IMG/VR virus record: IMGVR_UViG_2541047870_000003
From: a virus
Taxonomy: Duplodnaviria > Heunggongvirae > Uroviricota > Caudoviricetes
DNA length: 40,696 nt
Strand: one strand, 5' to 3'
Positions 1,985-26,009 of the stretch are shown here, one piece after another. A program made the translations under genes and the position numbers. Numbering within the stretch: the first letter of the stretch is position 1; the number at the start of each line of letters is the position of its first letter. The notes under the pieces were generated by a model. The model saw only the letters and a program-made list of their open reading frames with translations, made no database searches and was not told the origin of the DNA.

Positions 1985-2794
1985 TTATTCCTCTGAATTA
2001 TCGATTACACTGTATTCCCCGGTTAATACAGAGGAATCTGCAGGATCGATTGTCAGTGGTTCCTTTTCATCCATTGATACTGCACGCTGGATCTCAATTG
2101 ATACGGGCAGATATTTGAACAGGCGACGAATAGCCGTTTTCTTTGCCATTTCTTCCCAGTGAGTTACCCACGGCCCGTTATTACCAGCTTTACTCAGGCT
2201 GCGCACCAGCTCAATCTGTTTGCGCGTCATAACTTCAAACTGAGTACCTCCGTCTTTCAGTCTTGCGACAGCATAGACGTGGGTAACCGGGGCATCTTCG
2301 TTTTCTCCCGGGCGGTGTATTAACTTTTCATCAAGGCCAAATTCGAAGCTAAACTCGTCACCTTCACGGACAACACGGGCTGACAGGCTGGCGATTTGAC
2401 CAGAACGGCGAGCCAGATCAATCATGCCGCGATAGCCAATGATTAGCTGAACGTTCTTTTTACCGCTCTTTTCGTTTTTATTACCAAAAGGCAGTAAATA
2501 TGCATGACCGAGGGCGCTACCTGGCTCAAGTCCGAGCTGTGAACACTGTACGATCGCACTGACAAAACTCATAGTGTCACAGTTTCCTAACGCCGGAACT
2601 TTACGAATTTCTGTGGTGGCGATACGGATCATACGTTCAGCCGTCATATGGCGTGGAAGAGCTGCTGCCAGTTGCTCTTTCATTGATGGCTGGTTAATAA
2701 AACTAATCACGTCGCTATTTTTAACTGCTGCTGGTGCACGGTTTCCCTGAGTTTTTTGCAGATCGGCTTTTGCGATTGGTGGTTGCTTAGTCAT
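1985..2794 (-). CDS. recT: RecT single-strand annealing recombinase, 269 aa from [13 protein letters not shown]
   Basis: Translation recognised as RecT; 8-nt overlap with recE stop (operon coupling). Track ORF extends to 2851; internal Met preferred. Confidence 0.88.
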
Positions 2795-5387
2795 TTGCAT
2801 ATTCCTTAGCCCAGCGGGGCAGTGATAATGTCTTAATAGCTGGCCATTCATCGGTATTCAGGCAGTCAGACAGGGTTCGCAGATTGCGGTGATATTCCTG
2901 TTGACCTGCCAGTTTTGCTTCTTCGCCCATCATGAAAATTTCAACCGGATAACGTCCGCATTCAATAGTTGTGCTGGCAACCAGAAAAACGAAAGTTGGC
3001 TGCACTCCAAACTGTGCTTCATAACCGTCACTGTAGAATGCATCCTGAACGTGATAGCGGTAGTCGTAATAAGCGGTTTTGAATCGTTGAATATCCGCCG
3101 TAGTTTTCACGTCCATGATCCAGTGAAATTCAGGGATAATTTTGTCCGGACGGCACCGACACAAAATTCCTGTTTCAGGATCTTCCCAGTAAATTGATGA
3201 TTCAGCGTGTCCGGCGCTTTCAACAAGCCATTGCCCCAGCGGCAAAGCCATAACGCTCTGATACATGAGTTCAATTTTCCGGCCTTCTTCGGCAGTGATA
3301 ACCGTTTTTCCTGTGCTTGCGCATTCCCTCAGAAACGCTTTCTCTTCTTCTTTTCCGGAGTTTGTCCGGCGGTTAAATTCAGGTGCTACGATAAAGCGGT
3401 TACTGAATTCTTCCGGCTCAAGTACCCGGCAGTGGAAAGCGGTTCCTAAATCGAGCGTTTTTGTCTTTGTGGTGTCCACGGGGGCATTTTTACGCCACAA
3501 ATATAGTGCCGGAGTATCAGCAATGTCATCGAGCTGAGACTTACTGATACCGGGACCCGCGTGGTAATTCTCATTCGAAATTCCGTAATAAATACCTGGC
3601 TCTATGTCTTCTACGATTACGGGATCTGCGACTTCGCCAGTTTCATCACTGCAATCGCGATGCGGATCGCTGCCAGCATTCTCATTGTGCGGATGTTCAG
3701 CGCCTTCCATTTCCTCCGGATCATTTTCCTTAGCTTCAACCTGACTCTCTTCATCGAATGTTTCCTGGTATGTTGCGTCGCCCATCACCGCACCACAGTC
3801 AGGGCAGTTATCCCCGCCAGTCTGGCCGCAGGCATTGCAGGCTATTTCCGGTTCCTGTTGCACTACTGGCTCAGGTTGATTCATATCCGGGCTGGTTTTT
3901 TCCGTTTCTGGCTGGTTCTGGTACACACAATCGCGAGTCTGGATCCCCTTTACCCATTTCGGATCGTTCGGGTCGCTAATTCCGTCAACAAATTCACCAC
4001 GTGATGCAGCAAGCAATTTATCGGCATCGACAGGATTTTTTGATGGAATGTTTTTCCGGGCTTCATGGAGTTCTGCCCACAGTTCCTGATATTTCGCATC
4101 AACAGAATTTACCTGTGACTGAGCATCCAGCGGCTGCGTGTCCTGATGATGTTCAGTTGCGTCCGGTTCCATTGTTTCAGCCTCTCCCTGTTCAACTGCC
4201 GTTGTTCCAGATGGTTGCGGTTTTTCTTCATCATCCTGTTTTCCTTCTTCTGTTACTCGCTGCGGCATCGGGGCAGAGGAGCGACCGCAGGCAATATCCA
4301 CGATTTCCGGATCAGGGTTGGCATGATCGGTTTCAGTCAGTACTTTGTTCAGATATTCAGTGACGTGCGCGGGGATGACCTCGATCCCAATTGGTGCTTC
4401 TTTTACGGACGCAACCACGATGGCGCGGGAATAATCCAGCCCGCCAGGCATGGTGATGAATTTGTCGCGGAAAACAGAAAAGGGCGGTTTATTTTCAGCG
4501 ATAATTTCCTCAATGCGTTTAGCGTGTGCCGGATGAAGGTTATAGATGTCCAGATCCATTGAACGGGCCAGTACGCCAGTGGCTACGTCGCGCGCCAGTG
4601 ACGTCAGATCGTGTACGAAACCTTCGCCGCGATCGGTGAGGTTTCCGCCGCCAGCATTAGCACCGGAAGCCGTGCGAGTGATGTGTGAAACACGATTACC
4701 CTTCATCCACTCTTTTGTCAGCAGTCCTCGATCGGTGTAGTCAGCGTTCAGGTATGCTTCGAAAAAAGCAGTTATCAGTCCCAGGTTTGAATTACCAGGA
4801 TTAGGGAAAACTTTGTCAGTGTCACGAACCAGTTTGTGGAGTTCGCGAATTTCCAGCGGGTCGAGCAGGCTGGTTTTGTGGGAAACAGCCAGGGCAGTAA
4901 CAGCCGGTAGTTCTTCAGCCCGAGCAATGTGTAATGCCTGGAGTCCGTCGCGTGAAACGTGCGTTACCGGTTTTTCGCTGCCGTGTTGAGCAAGCCAACG
5001 AATGGGCAGTTCCTGGCCAGAAATTGGGAGTAGCATATTCTCCTCAATCTCAGTCATGTCTTCGCCGTTGACGTTGGTATTGCCTTGATAGTGAGCGTTG
5101 TCTGGTGCTGCTCCCGGTTTTAGTTCCCATGTCATGGAGTCTTTGCTGAGTTGATAGCGTTCACTCCAGGTAAAATCGATCTCACCTTCAGCGGGCAGGT
5201 CATTAACGACAGGAAAATTCGTGGCAACAGCTTTAAAATAGCTGCTCAGTTTTTTACCTGACTTAACGATCAGGTAGTCCAGAGTGGCACAGGTCGATTC
5301 AAAATCGTTGCTTGCCCACAGGACGACGTCAGGTTCACCGGATGATTTTTTCGCTTTCCGTAACAGGAAGAGTGGTTTTGTGCTCAT
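2787..5387 (-). CDS. recE: Exodeoxyribonuclease VIII (RecE), 866 aa
   Basis: 866-aa ORF directly upstream of recT on same strand; length and acidic linker with Cys cluster ([16 protein letters not shown]) consistent with RecE as I recall it. Confidence 0.85.
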
Positions 5388-5488
5388 TGTTTTTTAACCT
5401 CAACTCAGATTAAAATTCGTTTTGTTCAGTGAATGATCTTGCCGGATACACACTGTTCATAGCCTGCGCCATACGCAGGCTATTTCTT

Positions 5489-5764
5489 TCAGATTTCACC
5501 TTTTAATTTCATTGCAATTAGAGTTGCCAGAAATTCGGCTTTTTTTTCTGCGGGCAGATTCTTTCCGATATGCACCAGGCACATTTTTTTGACACCTTCA
5601 TCAAGTGTTTTTACGTTGCCTGATGGACCATCGATATCAACCACAGTGAATGGGGTTTCTTTATTTTCTGTTTTAATTACGTAGCCAATGCGCTTTCCTT
5701 CCAGATTCACCTCGTGAACAATGTCATCGGTAGTTACAACAGTGGCTTCATAATTGGTAATCAT
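5489..5764 (-). CDS. racC: RacC-like small early protein, about 91 aa from MITNYEATVV
   Basis: Track ORF 5489-5812; internal Met gives protein matching recalled RacC. Function unknown. Confidence 0.55.
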   Translation of the reverse strand: MITNYEATVVTTDDIVHEVNLEGKRIGYVIKTENKETPFTVVDIDGPSGNVKTLDEGVKKMCLVHIGKNLPAEKKAEFLATLIAMKLKGEI

Positions 5765-5838
5765 GTTTTTCTCCTTAATTAAGGTTGAGCGAATACCTGC
5801 CATTTCTGGCATAAATTCAGTTTCGAATAGTCAATTAA

Positions 5839-6009
5839 TTAAAGTTCATGTGCCATCTGGTCTTTTTCGGCACAAGCTTCACTGCAATATTTTCTCGGTT
5901 CGTCTTTTGATAAAATCCCGTGCATGAAGTGAAGCATTCTTTCAATAGCTTTGCTTTCTTCAACGTCTTTTTTGCAAAGGTGGTAAGCACATTTTATTTT
6001 CTTAGTCAT
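5839..6009 (-). CDS. ydaE: YdaE-like small Cys-rich protein, 56 aa ([14 protein letters not shown]...)
   Basis: Not in ORF track (below its length cutoff); I translated the minus strand by hand. Start ATG overlaps kilR stop (ATGA-type coupling at 6007-6011). Confidence 0.55.
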   Translation of the reverse strand: MTKKIKCAYHLCKKDVEESKAIERMLHFMHGILSKDEPRKYCSEACAEKDQMAHEL

Positions 6010-6230
6010 CACCATGACTCCGCCTTTACAGGTAAACCATCACGACCGAGGAAGACTTTAATCATGCGGTCAGTAATGCATGTTTTTGTGGTCAGGTTAC
6101 GAATATATAGTTTTCGCTTTTTAATATTGTTTGCCGAGGCAATATATGTCCGGCCTTCATGAAGAACATAATCGCCAGGAGTCACACACTGACGTGGTAT
6201 TTCATCAGTTCCGAAGTGATGTGCAATCAT
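6009..6230 (-). CDS. kilR: KilR-like host-killing protein (cell division inhibitor), 73 aa from [12 protein letters not shown]
   Basis: Track ORF 6009-6242; internal Met gives sequence recalled as Rac KilR. Confidence 0.7.
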
Positions 6231-6671
6231 AATTATCTCCATTTTTACAAATGAACTTTGTTGATGCGGTGCCTGGTGCCTCCAGGTGACTGCAACCAGT
6301 TAACAATTACAGTCGGCTTTCCCACCCAAACCAATAAGGACTAACATGACTTTTAACTGTGCCACGTGCGCTTAGCCGCATTCACCGCATCACAAAATTC
6401 ACTTTAAAAAGGGCGGACATCAGCCGAACTTCAAGAAAAAAACTGATGCCGCCAGGACTACACACAGCAATGTCGTTATTTACAACCGGAGGCGCACTCC
6501 CACCATTTAAATTTAACAGACAAGACCGACTCTTTATGGATATCGGAAATGCGCCTTCGTGTTGTGCCCGGTTTTATTTCACCACCTCCGGGCTTCGGTG
6601 GTCTCGGCTATACCCCTACAGCGAGAGCTTGTGTTAACATTTCAATACCCTTACAGTTGAGAGTTATTGAT

Positions 6672-7160
6672 ATGTTGGATGTATTTACTCCATTGTTGAA
6701 ACTTTTTGCTAACGAGCCACTCGAAATACTTATGTATACGATTATCATTTTTGGTCTCACTCTCTGGCTGATACCGAAAGAGTTTACTGTCGCATTCAAT
6801 GCTTATACTGAAATACCTTGGCTCTTTCAGATTATCGTTTTTGCCTTTTCTTTCGTGGTCGCCATTTCCTTCTCAAGATTGCGAGCACATATTCAAAAGC
6901 ATTATTCATTACTACCAGAGCAACGAGTATTGCTTCGTTTATCTGAGAAAGAAATCGCTGTATTTAAAGATTTCCTTAAAACAGGAAATCTTATTATCAC
7001 TTCTCCTTGCCGTAACCCGGTTATGAAAAAATTAGAACGGAAGGGCATCATTCAACATCAGAGTGATAGCGCAAACTGTTCTTATTATCTCGTCACCGAA
7101 AAATACTCCCATTTTATGAAGTTATTCTGGAACAGCAGGAGTAGACGTTTTAATCGTTAG
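6672..7160 (+). CDS. sieB: Superinfection exclusion protein SieB-like, 162 aa from MLDVFTPLLKLF; hydrophobic N-terminal segments
   Basis: In-frame internal ATG of track ORF 6549-7160; two hydrophobic stretches (IIIFGLTLWLI, IIVFAFSFVVAI) visible; recalled as Rac SieB. Confidence 0.75.
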   Translation: MLDVFTPLLKLFANEPLEILMYTIIIFGLTLWLIPKEFTVAFNAYTEIPWLFQIIVFAFSFVVAISFSRLRAHIQKHYSLLPEQRVLLRLSEKEIAVFKDFLKTGNLIITSPCRNPVMKKLERKGIIQHQSDSANCSYYLVTEKYSHFMKLFWNSRSRRFNR

Positions 7161-11952: not shown

Positions 11953-12112
11953 GCCAAATTAATAATCGGAACTTGGTGAAGTGAAAGAGAAAACATAATC
12001 CAAATCTGAATAATTAAATTCAGCACTGTGAATAAAATAGAGTCCTTAACCGGAGGAATTCCTGCACTCTCAAATCATCAGGAGGCCGCCCGAAAAGGCG
12101 GTGGAGATAATA

Positions 12113-12631
12113 ATGGAAATAACTAAAGAACGATTATTGGAAATAGCAAGTCTTAGTGATGGGGCATTAAGTGATGGGAGAATTATTTCTCCTGATGCTT
12201 ATGAATCAGTTACAAGTATAGAAATAATAACGATGGCTAGGATGCTTCTTGCGCGCTTCAAAAAAGAATATAAAAAACAGGTAGATAGCAATGCTAATAT
12301 ATATGATATTTTGGACGGTTGGGGAGCCTGGGCTGTAGCTGAAAATAGTTCTATTGATTGGCAGGAAATAGCTGATAAATATAAAAATGTTGTTCCTCAT
12401 GGTAAAAAATCACGTCGTCAGTGCAGCAATGATGAAGGGGGTATAATTGATACCTGCATGCTGAGGCTTAAACAATATAGGATAGATGACTATGAGTTAA
12501 TTATCGCTCATTTTGTTATGGGAGTTTCATTGCGTTGTTTAGCTAAGATAAACGAATGTTCAGATGGTAAAATAAGGAAAAAAATGCAAATGGCAATGGG
12601 ATTTATTGCAGGTTGTATCTATTACCGTTGA
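12113..12631 (+). CDS. Q82/QuuD-type antitermination protein Q homologue with about 60-aa N-terminal extension, in accessory island
   Basis: C-terminal half shares the pattern I recall from DLP12 QuuD (GAWA, SRxQC, DD, CMxRLK, CSDGxIxK, GFIxG). Start 12113 chosen for GGAG spacing; track ORF starts at GTG 12101. Memory-based. Confidence 0.55.
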   Translation: MEITKERLLEIASLSDGALSDGRIISPDAYESVTSIEIITMARMLLARFKKEYKKQVDSNANIYDILDGWGAWAVAENSSIDWQEIADKYKNVVPHGKKSRRQCSNDEGGIIDTCMLRLKQYRIDDYELIIAHFVMGVSLRCLAKINECSDGKIRKKMQMAMGFIAGCIYYR

Positions 12632-12661: not shown

Positions 12662-14095
12662 TTAACTACAGTAACTATTGATTAAGTGAGAACTGAGCCA
12701 AGAGGTAATTGCATTCGTAGCATGTTCATCAAGCATTGAGAATCCTAATATGATCATTATAAATGAAATCAGCAAAGTCAGAATCACAACGAATGTGGCT
12801 ATAATCTGATAAGCTTTGTATGCCTCTCTTAATGGTGTGACTGCAAGATTCTCATAGTCAGTATCATCAAGAAAACCATATAGTTTATCTCTCCAGACTA
12901 GCCTAGTATTATCAAGTATCTTAAAGTAATTTTTATTTATGAAGAGAGTTGTAACCTGAGATATAAAAATATATATAGATAACGCGAAGAACATATATGG
13001 GAATATGTTATTGGTTATATTAATCTTTGATGCGTCTAGCGCATATTTTATTGCAAATAGACTTATAACCAGAGCCAGATCTTTCCAAAGAGCGGATGTG
13101 ATGTCTTTAGACTGACTTATTATTTTTTGCGTGTCTTCAGCTAAGGTTTTCCTTAGATCGGACAGAGATTTAATAGTCTCTCTGCTGCTAGCGCGAATGT
13201 GGGCCTTATATAGTAATTTTGCTGACTCAAAGGCCATAGGGAGTTTTTTTGGTAAACCCTCACAGAAGGATACATACTCTGGCCATTCTCGTGCTAACTC
13301 ACTTGTGAAGAAAGTATGTTTGAGTTCAATCTCATTGCCCTCAATAAAGATCCAGTTTATTACAGTTTGTAAAACTGAATAGTCGGAAAGCAGAATGTCT
13401 GGATCTCCATAAATTAATTTTTTTGGTGGCTTTCCAGTTAAACAAATTGATTTCTTTTCATCTGCTAATAATTCATTAACGAGAGTGCGACAAAGCATAT
13501 TGCAGGAAACTTGTAACCATTTTTTGAAAAAGTTGTCCTCTTCCTCAGGCATTTTATAAAGTACCCAAGGAGCTATATCAGATGCAGGCATGAACTCACT
13601 AGAATAGAATTTAACGTAGCTCTGTAAATTGATTGAAGTTCGTACGGTTTCATTAGGTTCAATTTTTTCTGGAGCATGGTTCCATGGCTCAACAGAATAT
13701 CCTAAAGTTTCAAATCCATGTTTCAAACCGAGAATATTCACTTTATTGGTTATTGATACTAAATCATCATTGTGTAGAAAAACATTCCACCCTTCGAGCG
13801 TAAAAATATACCTGTTATTTTCGAATGCAATGCATTTTAGCGTAATGTTAAGTTTATCACCTTCACTGCATGACGATGGTTTTACTTCATCATTACAGTC
13901 ATCTTTAACAGTAATTTCAATCCAATTTGGTACGTTTTCGTAAACGTACTGCCAAAGAATGAGTGCATCTTTGTCCATTTTGGCAGAAATTAGAACGCGC
14001 GCAGAATCATTTTTTATTGATTCTGATGCCAAAAATTCAGGGTCTTTCCTTGACGCCTGTATAGACTCATCGATTTTTTGAAGTATCGATGTCAT
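12662..14095 (-). CDS. Hypothetical protein, about 477 aa: about 350-aa soluble N-terminal domain plus three predicted C-terminal transmembrane helices; candidate membrane effector
   Basis: Hydrophobic segments LALVISLFAIKYALDAS, IFPYMFFALSIYIFISQVTTLFI, IIATFVVILTLLISFIMIILGF; GAGGA 9 nt upstream of ATG at 14095; 29-nt overlap with upstream gene. Track ORF extends to 14143. Confidence 0.6.
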   Translation of the reverse strand: MTSILQKIDESIQASRKDPEFLASESIKNDSARVLISAKMDKDALILWQYVYENVPNWIEITVKDDCNDEVKPSSCSEGDKLNITLKCIAFENNRYIFTLEGWNVFLHNDDLVSITNKVNILGLKHGFETLGYSVEPWNHAPEKIEPNETVRTSINLQSYVKFYSSEFMPASDIAPWVLYKMPEEEDNFFKKWLQVSCNMLCRTLVNELLADEKKSICLTGKPPKKLIYGDPDILLSDYSVLQTVINWIFIEGNEIELKHTFFTSELAREWPEYVSFCEGLPKKLPMAFESAKLLYKAHIRASSRETIKSLSDLRKTLAEDTQKIISQSKDITSALWKDLALVISLFAIKYALDASKINITNNIFPYMFFALSIYIFISQVTTLFINKNYFKILDNTRLVWRDKLYGFLDDTDYENLAVTPLREAYKAYQIIATFVVILTLLISFIMIILGFSMLDEHATNAITSWLSSHLINSYCS

Positions 14096-15125
14096 CAGTA
14101 ATAATCCTCGCAGTAGTAACAATAATTTGTTTTCGCCCATCATCTAAGTTTCTTATTTCTGGACGGTCATCTTCATTATAACTAATTACTACACTTTCTG
14201 CAGTTTCAATTTTTCGTCTTGGTGGTTTATGAATGCCATCTGCTTTTATAGTAAAGGATTCGCCTTCAATACCAGCATTTTTTGTTTGAGTTTTGAATGT
14301 GTTGAGAATTGGTGATTTTTCATCTAACGGCCCAAAAATGCTGGTCAATAACGGAGAAGCATCTTCAGGATTATATTCGAAATCAGCTCTGCTTAAAACT
14401 TCATATATTTTATTTACGCCGCTTTTTTGAATTGACTCTGGCAATAATTCTTTATGCCTTTTGAAGGTTATTTTCAGCGCATCAATAAGCTTATTGCAAA
14501 GTTCAATTTCAGAGTTGACTCTTTTAACATTTAAGAAGCCTTTAAAATATCCTGAAATATTGGTTCTTTTACTCCTGTCTTTTACAATAACTTTCCCGCC
14601 TTTCCCACTTGGATCAAGTTGAATTAACGCTATTTTTTGCATTGCCTCAGCTTTTTTTACGAAAGTTTCATGAAATCTTTCTAAAGTAGGCATTTGTTCT
14701 TCAGATAACTCTTCGTCAAGAACATAACGAACCACATCTTCATTATCGTATTTTATAATTGCATAGAATTTTTCCTTATCTGAAACCAATTCAAATAAGA
14801 AAAAGCATCCCATACTCGTGTTACCGCTAGAATGGTGTGACTGAAAATCACTGGCCAGTAGCTTCGATTGTTCTGTAAAACAATTAGCTTCAGCATCTGC
14901 TTTATCTCTAATGATACGCAGGATTCTTTCGGTATTTGAATTCTCCAGAAAAGTGAAAAGATTTCCTTTCAGTGAAGATTTGATACGTTCAAGAAAAAAA
15001 TCCACATGCTGAACTGGTTTTATTTCTTTGAGAAGTGTCGGTGCTTCAAGATTCTTACCTACAACGTGAAAGATCATTTTATTAATGACTAAATTTTGTA
15101 CGTCTTGTTCAGAAAGGAAACTCAT
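14067..15125 (-). CDS. Hypothetical soluble protein, 352 aa; weak resemblance to NA37/YejK-type nucleoid-associated proteins; candidate sensor
   Basis: GGAG 5 nt upstream of ATG at 15125; N-terminal INKMIFHVVGK and central GCFFLFELV...FYAIIKY segments resemble YejK as I recall it. Low-certainty, memory-based. Confidence 0.55.
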   Translation of the reverse strand: MSFLSEQDVQNLVINKMIFHVVGKNLEAPTLLKEIKPVQHVDFFLERIKSSLKGNLFTFLENSNTERILRIIRDKADAEANCFTEQSKLLASDFQSHHSSGNTSMGCFFLFELVSDKEKFYAIIKYDNEDVVRYVLDEELSEEQMPTLERFHETFVKKAEAMQKIALIQLDPSGKGGKVIVKDRSKRTNISGYFKGFLNVKRVNSEIELCNKLIDALKITFKRHKELLPESIQKSGVNKIYEVLSRADFEYNPEDASPLLTSIFGPLDEKSPILNTFKTQTKNAGIEGESFTIKADGIHKPPRRKIETAESVVISYNEDDRPEIRNLDDGRKQIIVTTARIITDDIDTSKNR

Positions 15126-16672: not shown

Positions 16673-16962
16673 TGGTGGATTTACGTAAAGCGGCGCGGGG
16701 GCAGATGTGCGCCGTCAGAATTCCTGGCTACTGCAATCACGATCCGGAAACGTCTGTGCTGGCGCATTACCGACTGGCGGGAACGTGCGGAACAGCGACA
16801 AAACCACACGATATGCAGGCGGCGATTGCCTGTAGCTCATGCCACGATCTAATCGACGGGCGGGTAAAAACCAGCGATTACACCAAAGAAGAATTACGCC
16901 TGATGCATGCAGAAGGTGTTTTTCGCACACAAGAAATCTGGAGAAAGGAGGGATATTTGTGA
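16672..16962 (+). CDS. DUF1364 family protein (YbcO-like), 96 aa, Cys/His-rich
   Basis: CxxH/CxxC-type motifs (CSSCHDL, CNHD); ATGG start overlaps upstream stop; recalled similarity to YbcO. Confidence 0.65.
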   Translation: MVDLRKAARGQMCAVRIPGYCNHDPETSVLAHYRLAGTCGTATKPHDMQAAIACSSCHDLIDGRVKTSDYTKEELRLMHAEGVFRTQEIWRKEGYL

Positions 16963-17501
16963 TTTACCCAACGAATACAGGAAAAAGCGGAGAACACCTT
17001 CGTCTCGCCACGCTGGAAAGTGTCTGGATTCAGGGCAAACTGCGTATGTGGGGGCGCTGGTCGTATATTGGCGGTGGCAGGTCAGGAAATATGTTCAATC
17101 AGTTGTTGGCATCCAAAAAATTGACGAAAACAGCCATCAATGAAGCCCTGCGCAGAATGAAAAAAGCGGGAATAGAGAAAGCTGAGCTGGAAGCGTTTTT
17201 GCGAGAGATGATCAACGGCAAGCAAAAGAGCTGGCTGGCGCATTGTACTGATGCAGAGGCGTTATGTATTGATCGAGTCATAAGTGAGGTGCTGGCAGAG
17301 CATCCAGGATTGATTAGCGTCCTTCGGCAACGGTATGAGGGGCGGGGGATGACCAAACGCAAAATGGCTGAATTGCTAAATGATGCACACCCAGAGTGGT
17401 GTTTTAGCACATGCGAAAAGCGAATTGCTAATTGGTTGGCCGTTGCTGAGTATGCGCTATACATTCCCATGCGAGAATCATTCGCTCAAAAAACGGCTTG
17501 A
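16959..17501 (+). CDS. Putative late antiterminator Q (positional call), 180 aa from GTG
   Basis: GGAGGG 6 nt upstream of GTG 16959, overlapping upstream stop; last gene before the AT-rich late-promoter region, tRNAs and lysis cassette. Family not recognised with certainty. Confidence 0.5.
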   Translation: MIYPTNTGKSGEHLRLATLESVWIQGKLRMWGRWSYIGGGRSGNMFNQLLASKKLTKTAINEALRRMKKAGIEKAELEAFLREMINGKQKSWLAHCTDAEALCIDRVISEVLAEHPGLISVLRQRYEGRGMTKRKMAELLNDAHPEWCFSTCEKRIANWLAVAEYALYIPMRESFAQKTA

Positions 17502-17918: not shown

Positions 17919-17994
<76 letters not shown>

Positions 17995-17997
17995 TAT

Positions 17998-18072
<75 letters not shown>

Positions 18073-19532: not shown

Positions 19533-19993
19533 GCAGAGTCGCCGCGATTATTTATGCTTTGGTTATCTGCATCATCGTCTGCCTGTCGTGGGCGGTCAAT
19601 CATTACCGTGATAACGCCACCGCCTACAAAGAGCAGCGCGACAAAAATGCCAGAGAACTGAAGCTGGCGAACGCGGCAATTACTGACATGCAGATGCGTC
19701 AGCGTGATGTTGCTGCGCTCGATGCAAAATACACGAAGGAGTTAGCTGATGCGAAAGCTGAAAATGATGCTCTGCGTGATGATGTTGCCGCTGGTCGTCG
19801 TCGGTTGCACATCAAAGCAGTCTGTCAGTCAGTGCGTGAAGCCACCACCGCCTCCGGCGTGGATAATGCAGCCTCCCCCCGACTGGCAGACACCGCTGAA
19901 CGGGATTATTTCACCCTCCGGGAACGACTGGTAATGATGCAGGCCCAACTTGAAGGTGCTCAGCAATACATAACCGAACAGTGTTTAAAGTAA
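19529..19993 (+). CDS. Rz: Rz-like inner-membrane spanin (i-spanin), from GTG overlapping endolysin stop
   Basis: N-terminal TM segment, coiled-coil-like Ala/Arg/Asp-rich body; start uncertain (track ORF starts 19514). Confidence 0.7.
19749..19934 (+). CDS. Rz1: Rz1-like outer-membrane lipoprotein spanin embedded in +1 frame of Rz, 61 aa
   Basis: Lipobox LVVVGC and proline-rich body (PPPPPAW, PPPDW); fully embedded in Rz. Confidence 0.7.
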
Positions 19994-20130
19994 AATCTTA
20001 ACTACAATATGATTCATTTTGATGATTGTTTCATAAGGAACAGTGAAGTAAGATCTAAGAGGAGTTAAATTTTATACAGTATAATCATAATATTGCAGCA
20101 AGGTGGTTATAATTGAAAGAATATTTAGAT

Positions 20131-21588
20131 ATGAATACATCTCATGTAAGAGTTGTTACTCATATGTGTGGGTTCCTGGTTTGGCTCTATAGTCTTTCAA
20201 TGTTGCCACCAATGGTTGTAGCATTGTTTTATAAAGAAAAAAGCCTGTTCGTTTTCTTTATAACTTTCGTTATATTTTTTTGTATTGGTGGCGGAGCGTG
20301 GTATACAACTAAGAAATCTGGCATTCAATTACGTACCCGTGATGGGTTTATTATAATTGTAATGTTTTGGATTTTGTTTTCTGTTATTAGTGCATTCCCT
20401 TTATGGATTGACTCAGAACTTAATTTAACGTTCATTGATGCTCTGTTTGAAGGGGTTTCTGGAATAACAACAACAGGAGCAACTGTAATTGATGATGTTA
20501 GTTCATTACCTCGGGCATATTTGTACTATCGGTCACAGTTAAATTTTATAGGTGGTTTAGGAGTTATTGTTCTGGCGGTTGCTGTATTGCCATTATTGGG
20601 TATTGGTGGTGCAAAGCTTTATCAGTCAGAAATGCCGGGGCCATTTAAGGATGACAAACTCACTCCCCGCCTGGCCGATACGTCACGGACACTGTGGATA
20701 ACTTATTCTTTATTAGGTATTGCTTGTATTGTCTGTTATAGACTTGCAGGAATGCCTTTGTTTGATGCTATTTGTCACGGGATTTCCACAGTTTCGCTTG
20801 GTGGTTTCTCAACTCATAGCGAGAGTATCGGATATTTTAATAACTATTTGGTTGAGCTGGTGGCTGGTTCTTTTTCCCTGCTATCGGCTTTCAACTTCAC
20901 TCTTTGGTATATTGTTATTAGCAGGAAAACGATAAAACCTTTAATCAGAGATATTGAACTTCGTTTCTTTCTGTTAATAGCCTTAGGGGTGATCATTGTT
21001 ACCTCTTTCCAGGTCTGGCATATAGGTATGTATGACTTGCATGGAAGTTTTATTCATTCGTTTTTTCTTGCCAGCTCCATGCTCACTGATAATGGTTTAG
21101 CTACGCAGGATTATGCAAGTTGGCCCACGCACACGATAGTGTTTTTGCTGTTGTCAAGTTTCTTTGGGGGATGTATAGGTTCAACTTGTGGTGGAATTAA
21201 GTCACTTCGATTTCTTATACTTTTCAAACAAAGCAAACACGAGATAAATCAGCTTTCTCATCCCAGAGCGTTGTTGAGTGTAAATGTAGGAGGGAAGATA
21301 GTTACAGATCGTGTAATGAGGTCTGTATGGAGTTTCTTTTTTCTTTATACTCTCTTCACGGTGTTTTTTATACTGGTGTTAAATGGTATGGGATATGATT
21401 TTCTTACATCATTTGCAACAGTGGCTGCATGTATTAATAATATGGGATTAGGTTTTGGGGCTACTGCATCGTCATTCGGAGTGCTTAATGACATTGCAAA
21501 ATGTTTAATGTGCATAGCTATGATTCTTGGTCGCCTTGAAATTTATCCTGTTATTATATTGTTTTCAGGTTTTTTTTGGCGCTCCTAA
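20131..21588 (+). CDS. trkG: TrkG/TrkH-family K+ uptake membrane protein, 485 aa from MNTSHVRVV
   Basis: Polytopic membrane protein; recalled as Rac TrkG; sits in a region that looks AT-rich by eye. Track ORF starts at TTG 20113. Confidence 0.85.
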   Translation: MNTSHVRVVTHMCGFLVWLYSLSMLPPMVVALFYKEKSLFVFFITFVIFFCIGGGAWYTTKKSGIQLRTRDGFIIIVMFWILFSVISAFPLWIDSELNLTFIDALFEGVSGITTTGATVIDDVSSLPRAYLYYRSQLNFIGGLGVIVLAVAVLPLLGIGGAKLYQSEMPGPFKDDKLTPRLADTSRTLWITYSLLGIACIVCYRLAGMPLFDAICHGISTVSLGGFSTHSESIGYFNNYLVELVAGSFSLLSAFNFTLWYIVISRKTIKPLIRDIELRFFLLIALGVIIVTSFQVWHIGMYDLHGSFIHSFFLASSMLTDNGLATQDYASWPTHTIVFLLLSSFFGGCIGSTCGGIKSLRFLILFKQSKHEINQLSHPRALLSVNVGGKIVTDRVMRSVWSFFFLYTLFTVFFILVLNGMGYDFLTSFATVAACINNMGLGFGATASSFGVLNDIAKCLMCIAMILGRLEIYPVIILFSGFFWRS

Positions 21589-21725
21589 TATATGGCTGAT
21601 TTATAATTGTGAGTTTAATATTATGTTGACTCACTCATTGATCCAATACCTAACTTTACCAGCAATACCTCCGTCCCCAGTAGCACTGGCTGCTGGGGTG
21701 CGTTTTATTCATAAAGCAAGGCTGT

Positions 21726-22517
21726 ATGAGCGAGAAATTAAAGATAGTCTATCGCCCATTACAAGAATTGTCACCGTATGCGCACAACGCCAGGACGCAC
21801 AGCCCTGAGCAGGTGGCACAACTGGTAGAAAGTATTAAGCAATTCGGCTGGACTAATCCGGTGCTGATTGACGAAAAGGGCGAAATTATTGCGGGTCACG
21901 GTCGTGTTATGGCGGCTGAAATGCTCAAAATGGATTCTGTTCCGGTCATTGTTCTGTCTGGCCTGACGGATGAGCAGAAAAAGGCGTACCGCCTGGCAGA
22001 TAATCGCCTGCCGATGAATGCTGGCTGGGATGAAGATCTGTTGCGGATGGAGCTGTCGGACCTAATCAATGCTGATTTTGATGTCTCCCTGACAGGCTTC
22101 ATCCCGACAGAAATTGATGAACTGTTGACGGATGTTTTGCCCGGTACAGGAAATGAGGAGGAGCCGTATACGACGAAAATTGATACGCCTGTTTATGAGC
22201 CGTCGGGCGGTAAACCGGATATCAGTGAACTGTACGACGATACGAAAACTCAGGAGCTGATCAGCCGGATACGTTCGGCGTCCCTTGAGCCTGATATTGA
22301 GAAATTCCTCCTGTGTGCGGCAGAACGTCACACGGTGTTTAATTTCAGCAGAATTGCGGACTATTACGCTCACGCCCCCGCTGAAATTCAGTGTTTTTTC
22401 GAGGAGTCGGCGCTGGTGATCATTGATTATCAGCAGGCTATTGAAAATGGATTTGTCCGGATGACGCAGCGCATGGTGGAGATCATGCATGGTGGTGAGG
22501 AGGAGGAATATGCGTGA
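21726..22517 (+). CDS. ParB-like nuclease domain protein, 263 aa
   Basis: N-terminal ParB/Srx-like pattern (ELSPYAHNARTH...NPVLIDEKGEIIAGHGRVMAAEMLKMDSVPVIV) recognised from memory. Confidence 0.65.
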   Translation: MSEKLKIVYRPLQELSPYAHNARTHSPEQVAQLVESIKQFGWTNPVLIDEKGEIIAGHGRVMAAEMLKMDSVPVIVLSGLTDEQKKAYRLADNRLPMNAGWDEDLLRMELSDLINADFDVSLTGFIPTEIDELLTDVLPGTGNEEEPYTTKIDTPVYEPSGGKPDISELYDDTKTQELISRIRSASLEPDIEKFLLCAAERHTVFNFSRIADYYAHAPAEIQCFFEESALVIIDYQQAIENGFVRMTQRMVEIMHGGEEEEYA

Positions 22518-23442
22518 TGATTTTTGCGCCTTTATTCTGACTCACGGGCGACCGGACAAAGTTCTGACTTACCGGACGTTGCGTCGTGCTGGCTATACCG
22601 GGAAAATTTTTATCGTTGTTGATGATGAAGATAAGACACGGCATCAGTACATGGCTGAATTTGGTGAACAGGTGCTGGTGTTTTCCAAAGCCGATATCGC
22701 CAGTCGTTTTGACGAAGCCGATAATTTCTGTGACCGCCGCTCAATTTTTTACGCCCGTAATGCCTGTTTCGACCAGGCAAAACTGGTCGGGTGTAAATAC
22801 TTCATTCAGCTCGATGATGATTATCACGAGTTCCAGTTTCGGGTGGATCGCAACTATGACCAGGCCTATTTTCCGATAAGGAAACTGGATGCGATCCTTT
22901 CTGAAATGCTGGCGTACTACGAATCAATACCTGCTCTTTCCATCGCTATGTCGCAGGGAGGGGATTTTCTTGGTGACAATGGCGGCCATGCTTCGTGGGT
23001 GAAACGCAAGGCAATGAACAGCTTTATCTGTTCGGTTGATCGACCGTTCTCATTCATGGGGCGCATTAACGAGGATGTGAATACGTACACGAATCTCGGT
23101 CGCTGTGGTGAATTGTTTATGACGATCGGTGCTGTCCAGTTAGGGCAGAAACAGACGCAGAAAAACAGCGGCGGAATGACCGAGCTGTATCTGGATTCCG
23201 GAACCTACGTTAAAAGTTTTTACTCCGTCATGTATGCGCCGTCGTGCGTAAAAATCTCACTGATGGGTGCCAGCCATAAACGCATTCACCATCAGGTCAC
23301 CTGGAACAACGCTGCAGTAAAAATCCTTCACGAAAAATACAGGAAGAAGACACCCTGCATATCAATAGGGGTGACAAATGATTCCGTATTCGAAAGTCGA
23401 GTCTCTGGCAGCGTGCCGGATGACTGCACAACAAATCGCTGA
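22510..23442 (+). CDS. Hypothetical protein, about 310 aa, possible GT-A-like fold (DxD-like QLDDDY)
   Basis: ATG overlaps upstream stop (ATGCGTGA); motifs FILTHGRPDK, IVVDDED, QLDDDY; fold assignment speculative. Confidence 0.45.
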   Translation: MRDDFCAFILTHGRPDKVLTYRTLRRAGYTGKIFIVVDDEDKTRHQYMAEFGEQVLVFSKADIASRFDEADNFCDRRSIFYARNACFDQAKLVGCKYFIQLDDDYHEFQFRVDRNYDQAYFPIRKLDAILSEMLAYYESIPALSIAMSQGGDFLGDNGGHASWVKRKAMNSFICSVDRPFSFMGRINEDVNTYTNLGRCGELFMTIGAVQLGQKQTQKNSGGMTELYLDSGTYVKSFYSVMYAPSCVKISLMGASHKRIHHQVTWNNAAVKILHEKYRKKTPCISIGVTNDSVFESRVSGSVPDDCTTNR

Positions 23443-23629
23443 CGTTCTGGATGTTGATCTGAACCGACTGAAAGAAAATCGGGAAGCAATGACAGATTTT
23501 TATGCGGCCATCCGTAAGGGCAGAGCGAAAGGTGAAGCCGAGTTACGAGCGGCATTGTTTAAGCTTGCCAGAAAAGGGGATGCCTTTGCTCTGCGCGAAC
23601 TACTCAGGTTGGATAAAAATCAGGACTAA
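23378..23629 (+). CDS. Hypothetical small protein, 83 aa, upstream of terminase small subunit
   Basis: AGGGG upstream of ATG; helical basic protein. Confidence 0.4.
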   Translation: MIPYSKVESLAACRMTAQQIADVLDVDLNRLKENREAMTDFYAAIRKGRAKGEAELRAALFKLARKGDAFALRELLRLDKNQD

Positions 23630-23632
23630 CTG

Positions 23633-24727
23633 ATGAGCAGACCGGACTGGGGGGCGTTGCAGCAGGAGTATATTGCTGAATACACCCGCTCCGGTATATC
23701 TCCGGTGGCATGGTGTGAAGCAAGGGGACTGAATTACGCAACAGCCCGTCGTTACATCAAAAAACCTCCGAAAAATGCGCAGACAGAAATGCGCAAAACT
23801 GCGCAAAAAAGTGCGCAGAAAAAATCTGCGCAGACTGCACAAAAGCGGAACGAAAAATCTCAGGAAAAAAAGCCAGTATTCGATGCGGGCCTGAATGAGG
23901 GCGACGCGGAGGAATTTTCGTTCTGTCCCGATGAATTCGGCATTTCTGACCAGCAGGCTAAGTTTGCGATGCTTGTTGCTCAGGGTAAAAAGCCGACAGA
24001 GGCGTACCGACTAGCCGGTTATGAGGGGCAAGGTGCGACAGCTAACAGCAACGCCAGTCGTATGCTTAGAAATGCCAGGGTTTATCGTGCTATCAGCTAC
24101 TTCCGCAATCAGTACCAGAAACGCTATACCGCAGACCTGGATTTACTGGTGAGCCAGTTGATGGCCATTGTCCAGGCCGACCCCAATCAGTTGGCACAAT
24201 TTCGCCGTGTTAACTGCCGTTATTGCTGGGGCGAGAATCATCTCTACCAGTGGCGTGATATTGCAGAATTCGATAAGGCTGCGGCACAGGCCTCCAGAGA
24301 TGGTAAACCCGAGCCGGAATATGGAGGCCTCGGCTTTGTTGATAACGCCATACCCAATCCGGATTGCCCGAAGTGCTGCGGTGAGGGAACGGGACAGCTT
24401 TATATGGCTGATACCACACTGCTTGATGGGGATGCGCGGCAATTATATGCAGGGTCAAAGCTCGGAAAATACGGTGTTGAGATCCTGCTGGAGGATAAGG
24501 CTGCCGCCCGGCGTGAATTGTTGCGTTTGCTTTCTGCTGGCGGGGCATTATGTGCAGATAAGCGGCTACAGGAACTGGAAATTGAACGGCGCAGAATAGA
24601 AAACCAGAAGCTGCGCAAAGAGATCGAAACGGTGGAGGATAATGAACATCCCCAGCCTGTGGCGATCAATATTAATGTGGTTGATGCCAGAGTAAGGAGT
24701 GATGAAGATGATCTCTCCGACGCTTAA
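23633..24727 (+). CDS. Terminase small subunit (HTH-containing), 364 aa
   Basis: Immediately upstream of and overlapping terminase large subunit; HTH-like segments (GLNYATARRYI; KPTEAYRLAGYEG); Cys cluster CRYCWGE...CPKCCGEG. Confidence 0.6.
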   Translation: MSRPDWGALQQEYIAEYTRSGISPVAWCEARGLNYATARRYIKKPPKNAQTEMRKTAQKSAQKKSAQTAQKRNEKSQEKKPVFDAGLNEGDAEEFSFCPDEFGISDQQAKFAMLVAQGKKPTEAYRLAGYEGQGATANSNASRMLRNARVYRAISYFRNQYQKRYTADLDLLVSQLMAIVQADPNQLAQFRRVNCRYCWGENHLYQWRDIAEFDKAAAQASRDGKPEPEYGGLGFVDNAIPNPDCPKCCGEGTGQLYMADTTLLDGDARQLYAGSKLGKYGVEILLEDKAAARRELLRLLSAGGALCADKRLQELEIERRRIENQKLRKEIETVEDNEHPQPVAININVVDARVRSDEDDLSDA

Positions 24728-26009
24728 TGTGCCTCAGGCGCGATTTCTTTCAATGCCCCATAAATTTAAAGCCTATATTGCTGGTTTTGGCTCGGGCAAA
24801 ACATGGGTTGGGTGTGGCGGCATATGCAAGGGGATTTGGGAGCATCCAGGTATAAATCAGGGATATTTTGCGCCAACGTATCCCCAAATTCGCGATATTT
24901 TTTACCCTACAGTGGAAGAAGTTGCTGCTGACTGGGGATTGAACGTAAAAATTAATGAGGGAAATAAAGAGGTTCACTTTTATTACGGACGCCAGTATCG
25001 GGGAACCACTATCTGCAGATCGATGGAGAAGCCACAAACGATCGTCGGTTTCAAAATTGGTAATGCGTTGGTGGATGAACTGGACATTTTGCCGAAGGAA
25101 AAAGCCAGAACGGCGTGGCGCAAGATAATTGCACGTATGCGTTATAAGATTGATGGACTTCGCAACGGTATTGACGTTACAACCACGCCGGAAGGATTCA
25201 AATTTGTCTACGAGCAGTTTGTTAAAGCCGTGCGTGAAAAAACAGAGCTGGCCTCACTGTATGGTCTGGTGCAGGCATCTACTTTCGATAATGAAAAGAA
25301 CCTGCCAGCAGATTACATTCCTTCGCTTCTTGAATCATACCCTCCAGAGCTGATTAAAGCCTATCTTCGAGGACAGTTTACTAACCTGACAAGTGGTACT
25401 GTTTACCATCAGTTTGACCGGAAACTGAATAATTGCGAAGAAGTGGAGCAGCCAGGGGAGCCGATTTATATTGGGATGGATTTTAACGTTGGAAAGATGG
25501 CGGGAATCGTCCATGTGCTGCGTTTGGGGCTTCCATGTGCGGTAACTGAAATCATCAATGCCTACGATACGCCGGATATGATCCGCATCATTAAAGAACG
25601 CTTCTGGCTGTATGATGGGAATGATTACCGGAAAGTGAGGGAAATTTATATTTATCCAGATGCTTCCGGGGATTCCAGAAAATCAAGTAACGCAAGTACG
25701 ACGGATATAGCCCAGCTTAAGCAGGCTGGTTTTAACGTTGTGGTGAACAGCTCGAACCCGCCAGTAAAAGATCGCGTTAACTCAATGAATGCAATGTTCT
25801 GCAATGCCAATGGTGAGCGTCGCTATAAAGTTAATGTGAAGCGTTGCCCGTTATATGCCGAATCTCTGGAGCAACAGGTCTGGGATGAGAAGGGGGAGCC
25901 TGATAAAAAATCTGGCAATGATCACCCGAATGATGCCGGAGGTTATTTCATCGTTAAGCAATTCCCTATTGTCAAACCGACCGGAAGAGTCACATCACTT
26001 CGGATTTAA
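24699..26009 (+). CDS. Terminase large subunit, 436 aa
   Basis: Walker A-like AGFGSGKTW near N-terminus; acidic nuclease-like C-terminal region; position before portal. Confidence 0.85.
   Translation: MMKMISPTLNVPQARFLSMPHKFKAYIAGFGSGKTWVGCGGICKGIWEHPGINQGYFAPTYPQIRDIFYPTVEEVAADWGLNVKINEGNKEVHFYYGRQYRGTTICRSMEKPQTIVGFKIGNALVDELDILPKEKARTAWRKIIARMRYKIDGLRNGIDVTTTPEGFKFVYEQFVKAVREKTELASLYGLVQASTFDNEKNLPADYIPSLLESYPPELIKAYLRGQFTNLTSGTVYHQFDRKLNNCEEVEQPGEPIYIGMDFNVGKMAGIVHVLRLGLPCAVTEIINAYDTPDMIRIIKERFWLYDGNDYRKVREIYIYPDASGDSRKSSNASTTDIAQLKQAGFNVVVNSSNPPVKDRVNSMNAMFCNANGERRYKVNVKRCPLYAESLEQQVWDEKGEPDKKSGNDHPNDAGGYFIVKQFPIVKPTGRVTSLRI

Follow-up and report, generated by a model that had tools for sequence, protein, structure and literature searches.

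A ParB-fold protein and a TAGT-family glycosyltransferase encoded as a conserved gene pair ahead of viral terminase genes

Background

What do a ParB-like protein and a glycosyltransferase do together directly ahead of the terminase genes of a tailed virus? This question is raised by two overlapping genes at positions 21726-23442 (+ strand) of the IMG/VR record IMGVR_UViG_2541047870_000003. The whole stretch of 40,696 nucleotides is referred to below as the window, and it represents a Rac-like lambdoid prophage of E. coli that is essentially intact. A preliminary description had correctly placed the two open reading frames (ORFs), with their stop/start overlap, at 21726-23442, and had supposed that the pair might modify phage DNA. 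Here, the first gene is assigned to a ParB-fold protein, YnaK, and the second to a glycosyltransferase of the TAGT family. Comparison of sequences from many phyla indicates that the two genes are a conserved two-gene module, and analogy with characterised systems suggests that the pair probably glycosylates DNA.

The family assignment of the second gene is already in databases, both as Pfam TAGT and as 'GREB1-related protein'. The TAGT family was reportedly defined by Iyer et al. in 2013. ParB genes in DNA-hypermodification clusters have also been noted before, as far as a later account of that work tells (Iyer et al. 2013, as cited in PMC13229309), and as is also stated in bioRxiv 10.1101/2023.12.21.572611. 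No description of a two-gene ParB-TAGT module without a dioxygenase was found in the literature searched, which did not cover Iyer et al. 2013, and glycosyltransferases are not mentioned in a survey of the ParB fold. A 2026 survey recorded a 'solitary' TAGT of undefined function in 288 of 753 TAGT-encoding phage genomes, a paper on T4 likewise calls solitary TAGTs undefined, and a survey of glycosyltransferases set contigs of this kind aside (bioRxiv 10.1101/2023.12.21.572611).

The second gene encodes a TAGT-family glycosyltransferase

Gene 2 (22510-23442, + strand) encodes 310 amino acids (aa), with a core of about 285 aa. Its assignment to the TAGT family is based on the predicted fold and on PF20691, which is matched with a score of 120.3 bits (cut-off 27.5; E 1.4e-34), residues 8-222 being aligned to positions 4-205 of the 205-position profile. 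The protein also matches phrog_842 (E 4.9e-104), and databases label it with this family and as 'GREB1-related protein'. An earlier guess that it has a GT-A fold was borne out: the predicted structure shows the GT-A (nucleotide-diphospho-sugar transferase) fold, and the family is that of TAGT, the base-J glucosyltransferase (JGT) and GREB1-related proteins. In the viral structure library BFVD, the top matches are TAGT-domain proteins. The T4-like 'beta-glucosyl-HMC-alpha-glucosyl-transferase' is first seen at rank 22 with 11% identity, and T-even phages gave no tblastn match to the protein at 1e-5.

The motifs IVVDDED and QLDDDY, previously described as reminiscent of DxD nucleotide-sugar transferases, are the invariant acidic GT-A motifs in an alignment of 46 homologues. 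Within IVVDDED (aa 35-41, nt 22612-22632), D38 and D41 occur in every homologue, and at least 90% of the homologues keep D39 and E40. All of D102, D103, D104 and Y105 are invariant within QLDDDY (aa 100-105, nt 22807-22824). Additionally, R14 (nt 22549-22551) and D189 are invariant and E188 is present in at least 90%. On the basis of this conservation, R14, D38/D39/D41, D102-D104 (nt 22813-22821) and E188-D189 (nt 23071-23076), all on the + strand, are the candidate catalytic motifs. From the analogy with SpsA (Asp39, Asp98/99, Asp191), nucleotide binding would be the task of IVVDDED, the DxD metal site would be formed by QLDDDY, and E188-D189 would lie in the catalytic-base region. Taken together, these residues correspond to the R...DDD...ED[YF] active-site motif described for phage GT-A DNA glycosyltransferases and JGT (bioRxiv 10.1101/2023.12.21.572611), the last element reading E-D-V here.

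The start of gene 2 at 22510 is also used, at the equivalent position, by the PGAP annotation of a genome that is 100% identical over the region; an in-frame ATG at 22489 (317 aa) was rejected, as homologues align from M1 at 22510. The last 25 or so residues are non-conserved and are modelled with low confidence. No NCBIfam model and no PADLOC model matches the protein, and because of the latter it is not a listed defence gene. The possibility of a decayed relic was ruled out by the invariant catalytic residues, by the 45-60% identity across phyla and by the abundance of the locus: 889 of 5426 complete E. coli genomes, about one in six, contain a match at a single place that covers at least 80% of the 1717-bp pair region. 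Longer proteins named TAGT fall for the most part into clusters that hold one or a few sequences, taken from short assemblies, and are probably frameshift artefacts.

The first gene encodes a ParB-fold protein

Gene 1 (21726-22517, + strand) encodes a ParB/Srx (ParB-CTPase fold) protein of 263 aa with an isoelectric point (pI) of 4.5. It is annotated as ynaK in many genomes, and is the full-length counterpart of the truncated ynaK of the K-12 Rac prophage. PF02195 is passed narrowly (28.9 bits, cut-off 26.3), and phrog_620 is matched end to end (E 1.1e-90). The structure model consists of a confident N-terminal domain (modelled over aa ~11-135), a disordered linker (aa 136-169) and a helical C-terminal domain at lower confidence. 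The N-terminal domain (aa ~8-135, 21747-22130, + strand; pLDDT ~90) is predicted to bind nucleotides, and the best Foldseek matches are Noc, the CTP- or CDP-bound ParB of B. subtilis and M. xanthus, PadC, KorB and pNOB8 ParB-N (7nfu, 6sdk, 7bnr, 6ryk, 8qa9; E ~1e-6, probability 1.00). From the initial label of a 'ParB-like nuclease domain', the ParB domain was thus confirmed. Nothing was found that points to nuclease activity, and this function was set aside, 'nuclease' being merely a historical name of the ParB domain.

Conserved residues of the N-terminal domain include N21-x-R23, S36, G57-H58-G59-R60 and D92-N93. G57-H58-G59-R60 (nt 21894-21905) occupies the position of ParB box II (GERR). 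The box II arginine (R60) and the box III asparagine (N93) are kept, and the box II glutamate is replaced, by Asn or His in homologues. It is this glutamate that hydrolyses CTP in partition ParBs. Relatives with the ParB fold bind CTP, ATP or GTP (ParB-fold survey). The domain also matches phrog_498, the N-terminal region of a DNA methyltransferase (E 1.2e-50), and the PADLOC model MTase_II at positions 13-151 (E 2.5e-38); by these profile matches it is the subtype found fused to DNA methyltransferases.

The linker contains a motif, Y148-[ST]149-x-K151-[IV]-x-x-P155-x-Y157-x-P159 (22167-22202, + strand), that was recognised when 35 homologues from a wide range of phyla were aligned. Both tyrosines, Y148 and Y157, are present in all of them, residue 149 is Ser or Thr without exception, and at least 80% retain Lys151 and Pro155. 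The motif lies within predicted disorder (pLDDT 32-43), and is a candidate docking site for the TAGT or a candidate hydroxyl acceptor. It is followed by a C-terminal domain (aa ~170-255, 22233-22490, + strand; FLxxAAxRH...SALVIID...AIExG) that has no Pfam match and is private to this family. Outside Enterobacterales, blastp identity is 40-56% in the C-terminal part versus 23-58% in the N-terminal part, and mean column conservation is 0.59 in the C-terminal domain versus 0.41 in the N-terminal domain. A search of residues 141-263 against 1.84 billion representatives returned 1188 clusters at E <=1e-3. In nearly all full-length matches the domain is at the C-terminus of a protein of ~250-300 aa, and no fusion to a TAGT is evident among the best 150 of the 1188 representatives. 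The two proteins of the pair are of complementary charge, the pI being 4.5 for YnaK (median 4.6 in the 35 homologues) and ~8.5 for the TAGT (median 8.4).

A role as a partition ParB was ruled out, since no ParA gene is found in the prophage annotation and no helix-turn-helix (HTH) domain is found in YnaK by Pfam or in the structure model, where aa 135 is followed by a disordered linker. The TIGR00180 model is matched below its cut-off (38.4 bits, cut-off 58.45), and by the N-terminal domain only.

The gene pair is conserved in viruses of many phyla

A diverse set of 45 loci was obtained by scanning the genome contigs of one genome per species with a TAGT profile. A scan of viral contigs with the TAGT alignment gave mostly near-identical E. 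coli prophages, and was not used for diversity. The 45 loci come from Enterobacterales, Bacteroidota, Firmicutes, Desulfovibrionaceae, Planctomycetota, Ignavibacteria, Saccharibacteria, Chlorobi and others. Their TAGTs are 45 to 99% identical to the window protein, with values of mostly 45-60% for loci that are not from Enterobacterales. A YnaK homologue is encoded directly upstream of the TAGT in every locus with usable upstream sequence (42 of 42).

The terminase genes that had been placed downstream of the pair do follow it, as genes for the small (TerS) and large (TerL) subunits, and they are a conserved feature of the pair. Within three ORFs downstream of the TAGT, a TerS-sized ORF and a TerL are found, the latter from at least 4 Pfam families (Terminase_6N in 15 ORFs, Terminase_3 in 12 and GpA in 3, plus T7-like forms). 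Therefore, the module holds its position while the packaging machinery changes. Reverse look-ups from the ParB homologues of Hafnia and Yersinia gave the order lysis genes, ParB, TAGT, small ORF, TerS, TerL and portal.

The module is also carried by isolated viruses. These include the Lactobacillus phages c5, LL-Ku, phiLdb and Ld17 of L. delbrueckii and phi jlb1 of L. gasseri, as well as Nocardia NTR1, Vibrio jumbo phages and the haloarchaeal virus HHTV-2. In phage c5, with a genome of 31.8 kb, the pair is ORF1-ORF2 (90-1713), immediately by cos; in HHTV-2, a tailed virus, the overlapping ParB and TAGT genes are located at 5196-6858. The transferase of both is named 'beta-glucosyl-HMC-alpha-glucosyltransferase' in RefSeq, probably a misleading transfer from T-even phages.

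Two loci contain accessory genes. On the Virgibacillus plasmid pCBA3643-01 (5581-8846), two genes lie immediately upstream of the ParB-TAGT pair and abut it: the first encodes an NDP-sugar epimerase/dehydratase (PF01370, E 2e-61), the second a sugar-1-phosphate nucleotidylyltransferase (PF00483, E 1e-25). The position of these two genes implies a putative dedicated supply of donor sugar. TerS- and TerL-sized ORFs follow the pair. A Hyphomonadaceae locus (2614-6161) encodes a ParB, a 564-aa fusion of a TAGT to a class I SAM-methyltransferase-like domain (PF13489/PF08241, weak matches) and a second TAGT, and at least the last junction has a ATGCGTGA-type overlap. This arrangement suggests a two-sugar, possibly methylated product. 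As judged from their families, the accessory genes of the two loci would indicate genuine sugar chemistry.

Gene overlap and expression of the pair

In the window, the ATG of gene 2 and the TGA stop of gene 1 share the 8-nt sequence ATGCGTGA (22510-22517, + strand; -1 frame). A strong Shine-Dalgarno-like run, GAGGAGGAGGAA (22494-22505, + strand), is located 4-5 nt upstream of this ATG. The junction could be compared in 44 loci; an overlap of the start-inside-stop type measures 11 nt in 22 of them and 8 nt in 10. It is not a chance arrangement, because the 8- or 11-nt type is kept in 32 of the 44. Hafnia and Yersinia prophages have the 8-nt form, and HHTV-2 is annotated with the 11-nt form. Co-translation had been read from the single overlap in the window; its conservation across phyla fits translational coupling and, by extension, a fixed stoichiometry of the two proteins.

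A terminator-like hairpin followed by a T-run (21675-21708, hairpin 21675-21698, + strand) is found between trkG and the ParB-like gene. With 10 pairs, of which 7 are G-C, and the tail TGCGTTTTAT, it is the strongest terminator-like site in 19900-24000; its folding energy is -22.5 kcal/mol (z = -4.4), and none of 200 shuffles folds as well. In lysogens, this hairpin probably keeps transcription of trkG from running on into the pair. The pair lies downstream of Q and the lysis genes, behind the terminator and ahead of the terminase genes, a position compatible with late expression. It would then be expressed solely from Q-antiterminated late transcripts reading through the terminator. The potassium-transporter gene trkG itself (20113-21588, + strand; PF02386, E 5e-145) is a cargo gene that separates the lysis cassette from the ParB-like gene, an arrangement also seen in K-12 Rac. 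In the related prophages of Hafnia and Yersinia, the pair comes straight after the lysis genes, without trkG.

Proposed mechanism and the acceptor problem

The reading that we favour, and to which about an even chance is given, is that of a late-expressed module in which YnaK activates or targets the TAGT and the complex acts on phage DNA late in infection. YnaK is proposed as the activating or targeting subunit because of the precedent of the ParB-dependent thymine dioxygenases. The pair would be a self-contained glycosylation module heading the DNA-packaging operon of tailed viruses, its second product a metal-dependent GT-A enzyme using a nucleotide-sugar donor and YnaK the obligate partner of that enzyme. 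Coupled translation through the start/stop overlap would ensure that both proteins are made together. The acidic YnaK may bind the basic TAGT through the linker motif and the C-terminal domain, and may activate or position it on the double-stranded DNA of the phage around packaging, as ParB176 does with its dioxygenase.

Confidence in this mechanism goes no higher because the acceptor problem remains, and several observations weigh against it. To our knowledge, canonical E. coli DNA has no hydroxyl acceptor. Characterised TAGT-family enzymes glycosylate 5-hydroxymethylcytosine (5hmC), 5-hydroxymethyluracil (5hmU) or a sugar already on hmC (including bioRxiv 10.1101/2023.12.21.572611). For example, metavirome GT-A enzymes act on 5hmC (bioRxiv 10.1101/2023.12.21.572611), and the T2/T6 enzyme adds a second glucose onto glucosyl-hmC. 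The earlier supposition that the pair modifies phage DNA is therefore favoured by what the characterised viral members of the family do, and is opposed by the failure to find an enzyme for the required hydroxymethyl-pyrimidine. The PGAP annotation of the related prophage of E. coli strain KKa014 contains no TET/JBP protein, thymidylate-synthase-like hydroxymethylase, alpha/beta-glucosyltransferase or DNA methyltransferase. None of these is represented in the 25 Pfam families that were listed for ORFs of the window, and the complete 31.8-kb genome of phage c5 contains no acceptor-making candidate.

The neighbours of the pair were also surveyed in 26-36 loci, with censuses of Pfam families in 104 downstream, 59 proximal upstream and 85 distal upstream ORFs. 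TET_JBP and thymidylate-synthase families are absent from the 25 most frequent families that each census lists, among which a weak TET_JBP match could be hidden. C5-methyltransferases (5 ORFs), N6/N4 methyltransferases (3) and PAPS-reductase-like proteins (3) are seen. Moreover, YnaK is unlikely to bind DNA by itself, because it is acidic and has no DNA-binding domain. Finally, the eukaryotic relative GREB1 modifies a protein, O-GlcNAcylating Ser/Thr of the estrogen receptor ER-alpha (PMC7968844).

These points lead to the first alternative, that the sugar is transferred onto a protein hydroxyl and not onto DNA, which is considered rather unlikely. The acceptor could be the Tyr-Ser/Thr...Tyr linker motif of YnaK itself, in a glycogenin-like or GREB1-like activity switch, or a packaging or virion protein from the adjacent genes. 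Such a reaction would need no acceptor-making enzyme, and none was found in the KKa014 annotation, the families listed for the window, c5 or the neighbours listed. It would agree with the protein substrate of GREB1, from which the database name is taken, with the invariance of Y148 and Y157 and the constant Ser/Thr at 149 in a segment predicted to be disordered, and with the appearance of YnaK, which is not that of a DNA-binding protein. However, every characterised viral enzyme of the TAGT family acts on DNA, the N-terminal subtype of YnaK is the one fused to DNA methyltransferases, and a conserved linear motif is equally explicable as a docking site.

A broader idea, for which the odds appear poor, is that the system is self-sufficient and requires no hydroxymethyl-pyrimidine precursor. 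The sugar could then be placed on canonical or host-methylated DNA, on DNA ends at packaging, or on the Tyr/Thr motif of YnaK as a switch. If this were true, it would represent a kind of viral glycosylation not described before, present in about one sixth of complete E. coli genomes, in phages of many phyla and in a haloarchaeal virus.

The purely DNA-directed form of such chemistry is judged improbable when taken separately. Here, a sugar would be attached directly to a canonical or host-methylated base, for instance by N-glycosylation of an exocyclic amine, or to the DNA ends made by terminase, so that no hydroxymethylase is needed. The module seems self-sufficient in very small genomes, c5 with ORF1-ORF2 by cos being an example, the pair always adjoins terminase, and this form shares its links to DNA-modifying enzymes with the favoured mechanism. 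All characterised members of the family use an O-nucleophile, however, and the proposal is pure inference. We know of no precedent for glycosyl transfer to unmodified DNA bases or to DNA termini.

The last explanation, that a ParB-like partition, nuclease or packaging factor merely neighbours a lysogenic-conversion transferase for cell-surface glycans, would suit old annotations of gene 1 as 'chromosome (plasmid) partitioning protein' and the frequency of surface-glycan transferases in prophages, but it is very hard to reconcile with the strict coupling and gene overlap across phyla and in an archaeal virus, the C-terminal domain private to the YnaK family, the lack of ParA, HTH and parS-type architecture, the transferase model, which is a soluble GT-A fold throughout with no GtrA/GtrB-type genes present, and the location of the pair in the late operon behind a terminator.

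Prophage setting and neighbouring genes

The gene order of the window is integrase, recET, kilR, sieB, racR, ydaSTUV, Q, lysis genes, trkG, the pair, terminase, portal, head and tail genes. The pair region (21726-23442) is 100% identical to E. coli strain KKa014, the prophage of which is near-identical to the window over the pair and the late region and divergent upstream.

Between the TAGT gene and TerS, a small ORF of 69-83 aa is found at 23420-23629 (+ strand; alternative start 23378), the PGAP start corresponding to 23420. It overlaps the non-conserved 3' tail of the TAGT gene by 23-65 nt, matches a segment of the small-terminase family phrog_309 (E 9e-23) and is retained after the TAGT in enterobacterial loci. 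It probably belongs to the packaging module and not to the ParB-TAGT pair. TerS (23633-24727, + strand; PF03592) and TerL (24699-26009, + strand; PF03237 and PF17289) are next. Because this phrog_309-like ORF precedes a 364-aa Terminase_2 TerS, the small terminase may be split or in two parts.

Several other features of the prophage can be observed. Two phage-borne tRNA genes, tRNA-Thr(TGT) and tRNA-Gly(TCC), were identified with ARAGORN at 17919-18072 (+ strand), upstream of the holin gene. The Q-like antiterminator and DUF1367 are separated by two overlapping cargo genes on the - strand (12662-15125). The product of one, 493 aa long, has no match in Pfam, NCBIfam or PADLOC, and the other encodes a 352-aa NA37/NdpA-like nucleoid-associated protein (PF04245, E 9e-13); the two genes may be an accessory or defence pair. 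Phage_antitermQ is matched by two window ORFs in the Pfam census. One would be the ORF at ~12101-12631 (Q family, by the PGAP coordinates of the intact prophage L001), and the second is probably the DUF1133-annotated ORF at ~16839-17501.

The ynaK of K-12 and BW25113 matches only nt 1-254 of the full-length gene (window 21726-21979), and then runs directly into ydaY. In the intact prophage L001, ydaY is located after the tail-tube gene. From this junction, it appears that K-12 Rac lost ~10 kb in one deletion, which starts in the middle of ynaK, takes in the TAGT, terminase, portal and head genes and extends to the tail tube.

Significance of the pair

The glycosylation of phage DNA is a main escape route from restriction, CRISPR and glycosylase-based defences. 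The present findings show that one large, highly conserved clade of 'solitary' TAGTs is not solitary, having a dedicated ParB-fold partner and a place ahead of the terminase genes. The idea that ParB has been repurposed as an activator of DNA-modifying enzymes would be widened from dioxygenases to glycosyltransferases. The pair is also an easy experimental system, because many E. coli strains carry intact Rac-like prophages and the ynaK stub of K-12 is a remnant of one. Such a system could reveal the identity of the acceptor and the role of the ParB fold.

Comparison with known systems

The CTP-dependent DNA clamps Spo0J, Noc and KorB have the same N-terminal fold as YnaK, in which the equivalents of R60 and N93 are retained. 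In contrast to these proteins, YnaK has no HTH parS-binding domain and no ParA, the GERR glutamate is replaced (G-H-G-R), and the protein is strongly acidic and encoded in a late phage operon. Phage proteins often join the ParB fold to a DNA methyltransferase in one fusion (ParB-fold survey). The ParB-N::DNA methyltransferase fusions of phages, prophages and plasmid leading regions (phrog_498; PADLOC MTase_II, PDLC03229) share the N-domain subtype of YnaK and, like it, tend to be prophage-encoded. Their enzyme is fused and methylates canonical bases, whereas in the present pair it is a separate, coupled polypeptide that is predicted to transfer a sugar.

The TAGT family (PF20691) includes the phage TET-associated GT-A enzymes, the T2/T6 enzyme, the trypanosome base-J glucosyltransferase and GREB1, and shares with the window protein a significant profile match, the GT-A fold and R...DDD...ED. 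It differs in that no TET/5mYOX, dCMP hydroxymethylase or primary alpha/beta-glucosyltransferase was found in this genome. The window TAGT and the T-even enzyme are only distant relatives, and neither a close relationship nor co-occurrence with an hmC pathway was seen. The clade of the window TAGT is 45-60% identical across phyla, and is defined by the ParB-like neighbour.

The nearest precedent with an experimental basis is provided by the ParBs associated with the 5mYOX dioxygenases. Phage ParB176 activates its cognate thymine dioxygenase, 5mYOX176, on double-stranded DNA (O'Toole et al., PNAS 2026, PMC13229309). In these systems ParB is required on double-stranded DNA and the pairs are specific, and no stable complex was trapped (PMC13229309). 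The partner of YnaK differs in being a glycosyltransferase and not a dioxygenase, none of which was found beside the pair. Nevertheless, both kinds of ParB lack a DNA-binding domain and are built from an N-terminal domain that a disordered linker joins to a C-terminal one (PMC13229309), both are encoded beside an enzyme of DNA-modification type, and the residues N-x-R...S...R are at nearly equal spacing. The 5mYOX-ParB clusters often include glycosyltransferases and terminases (PMC13229309), and ParB176 and YnaK have the same best structural matches, namely Noc, the CTP-bound ParB of M. xanthus and B. subtilis, PadC and pNOB8 ParB-N.

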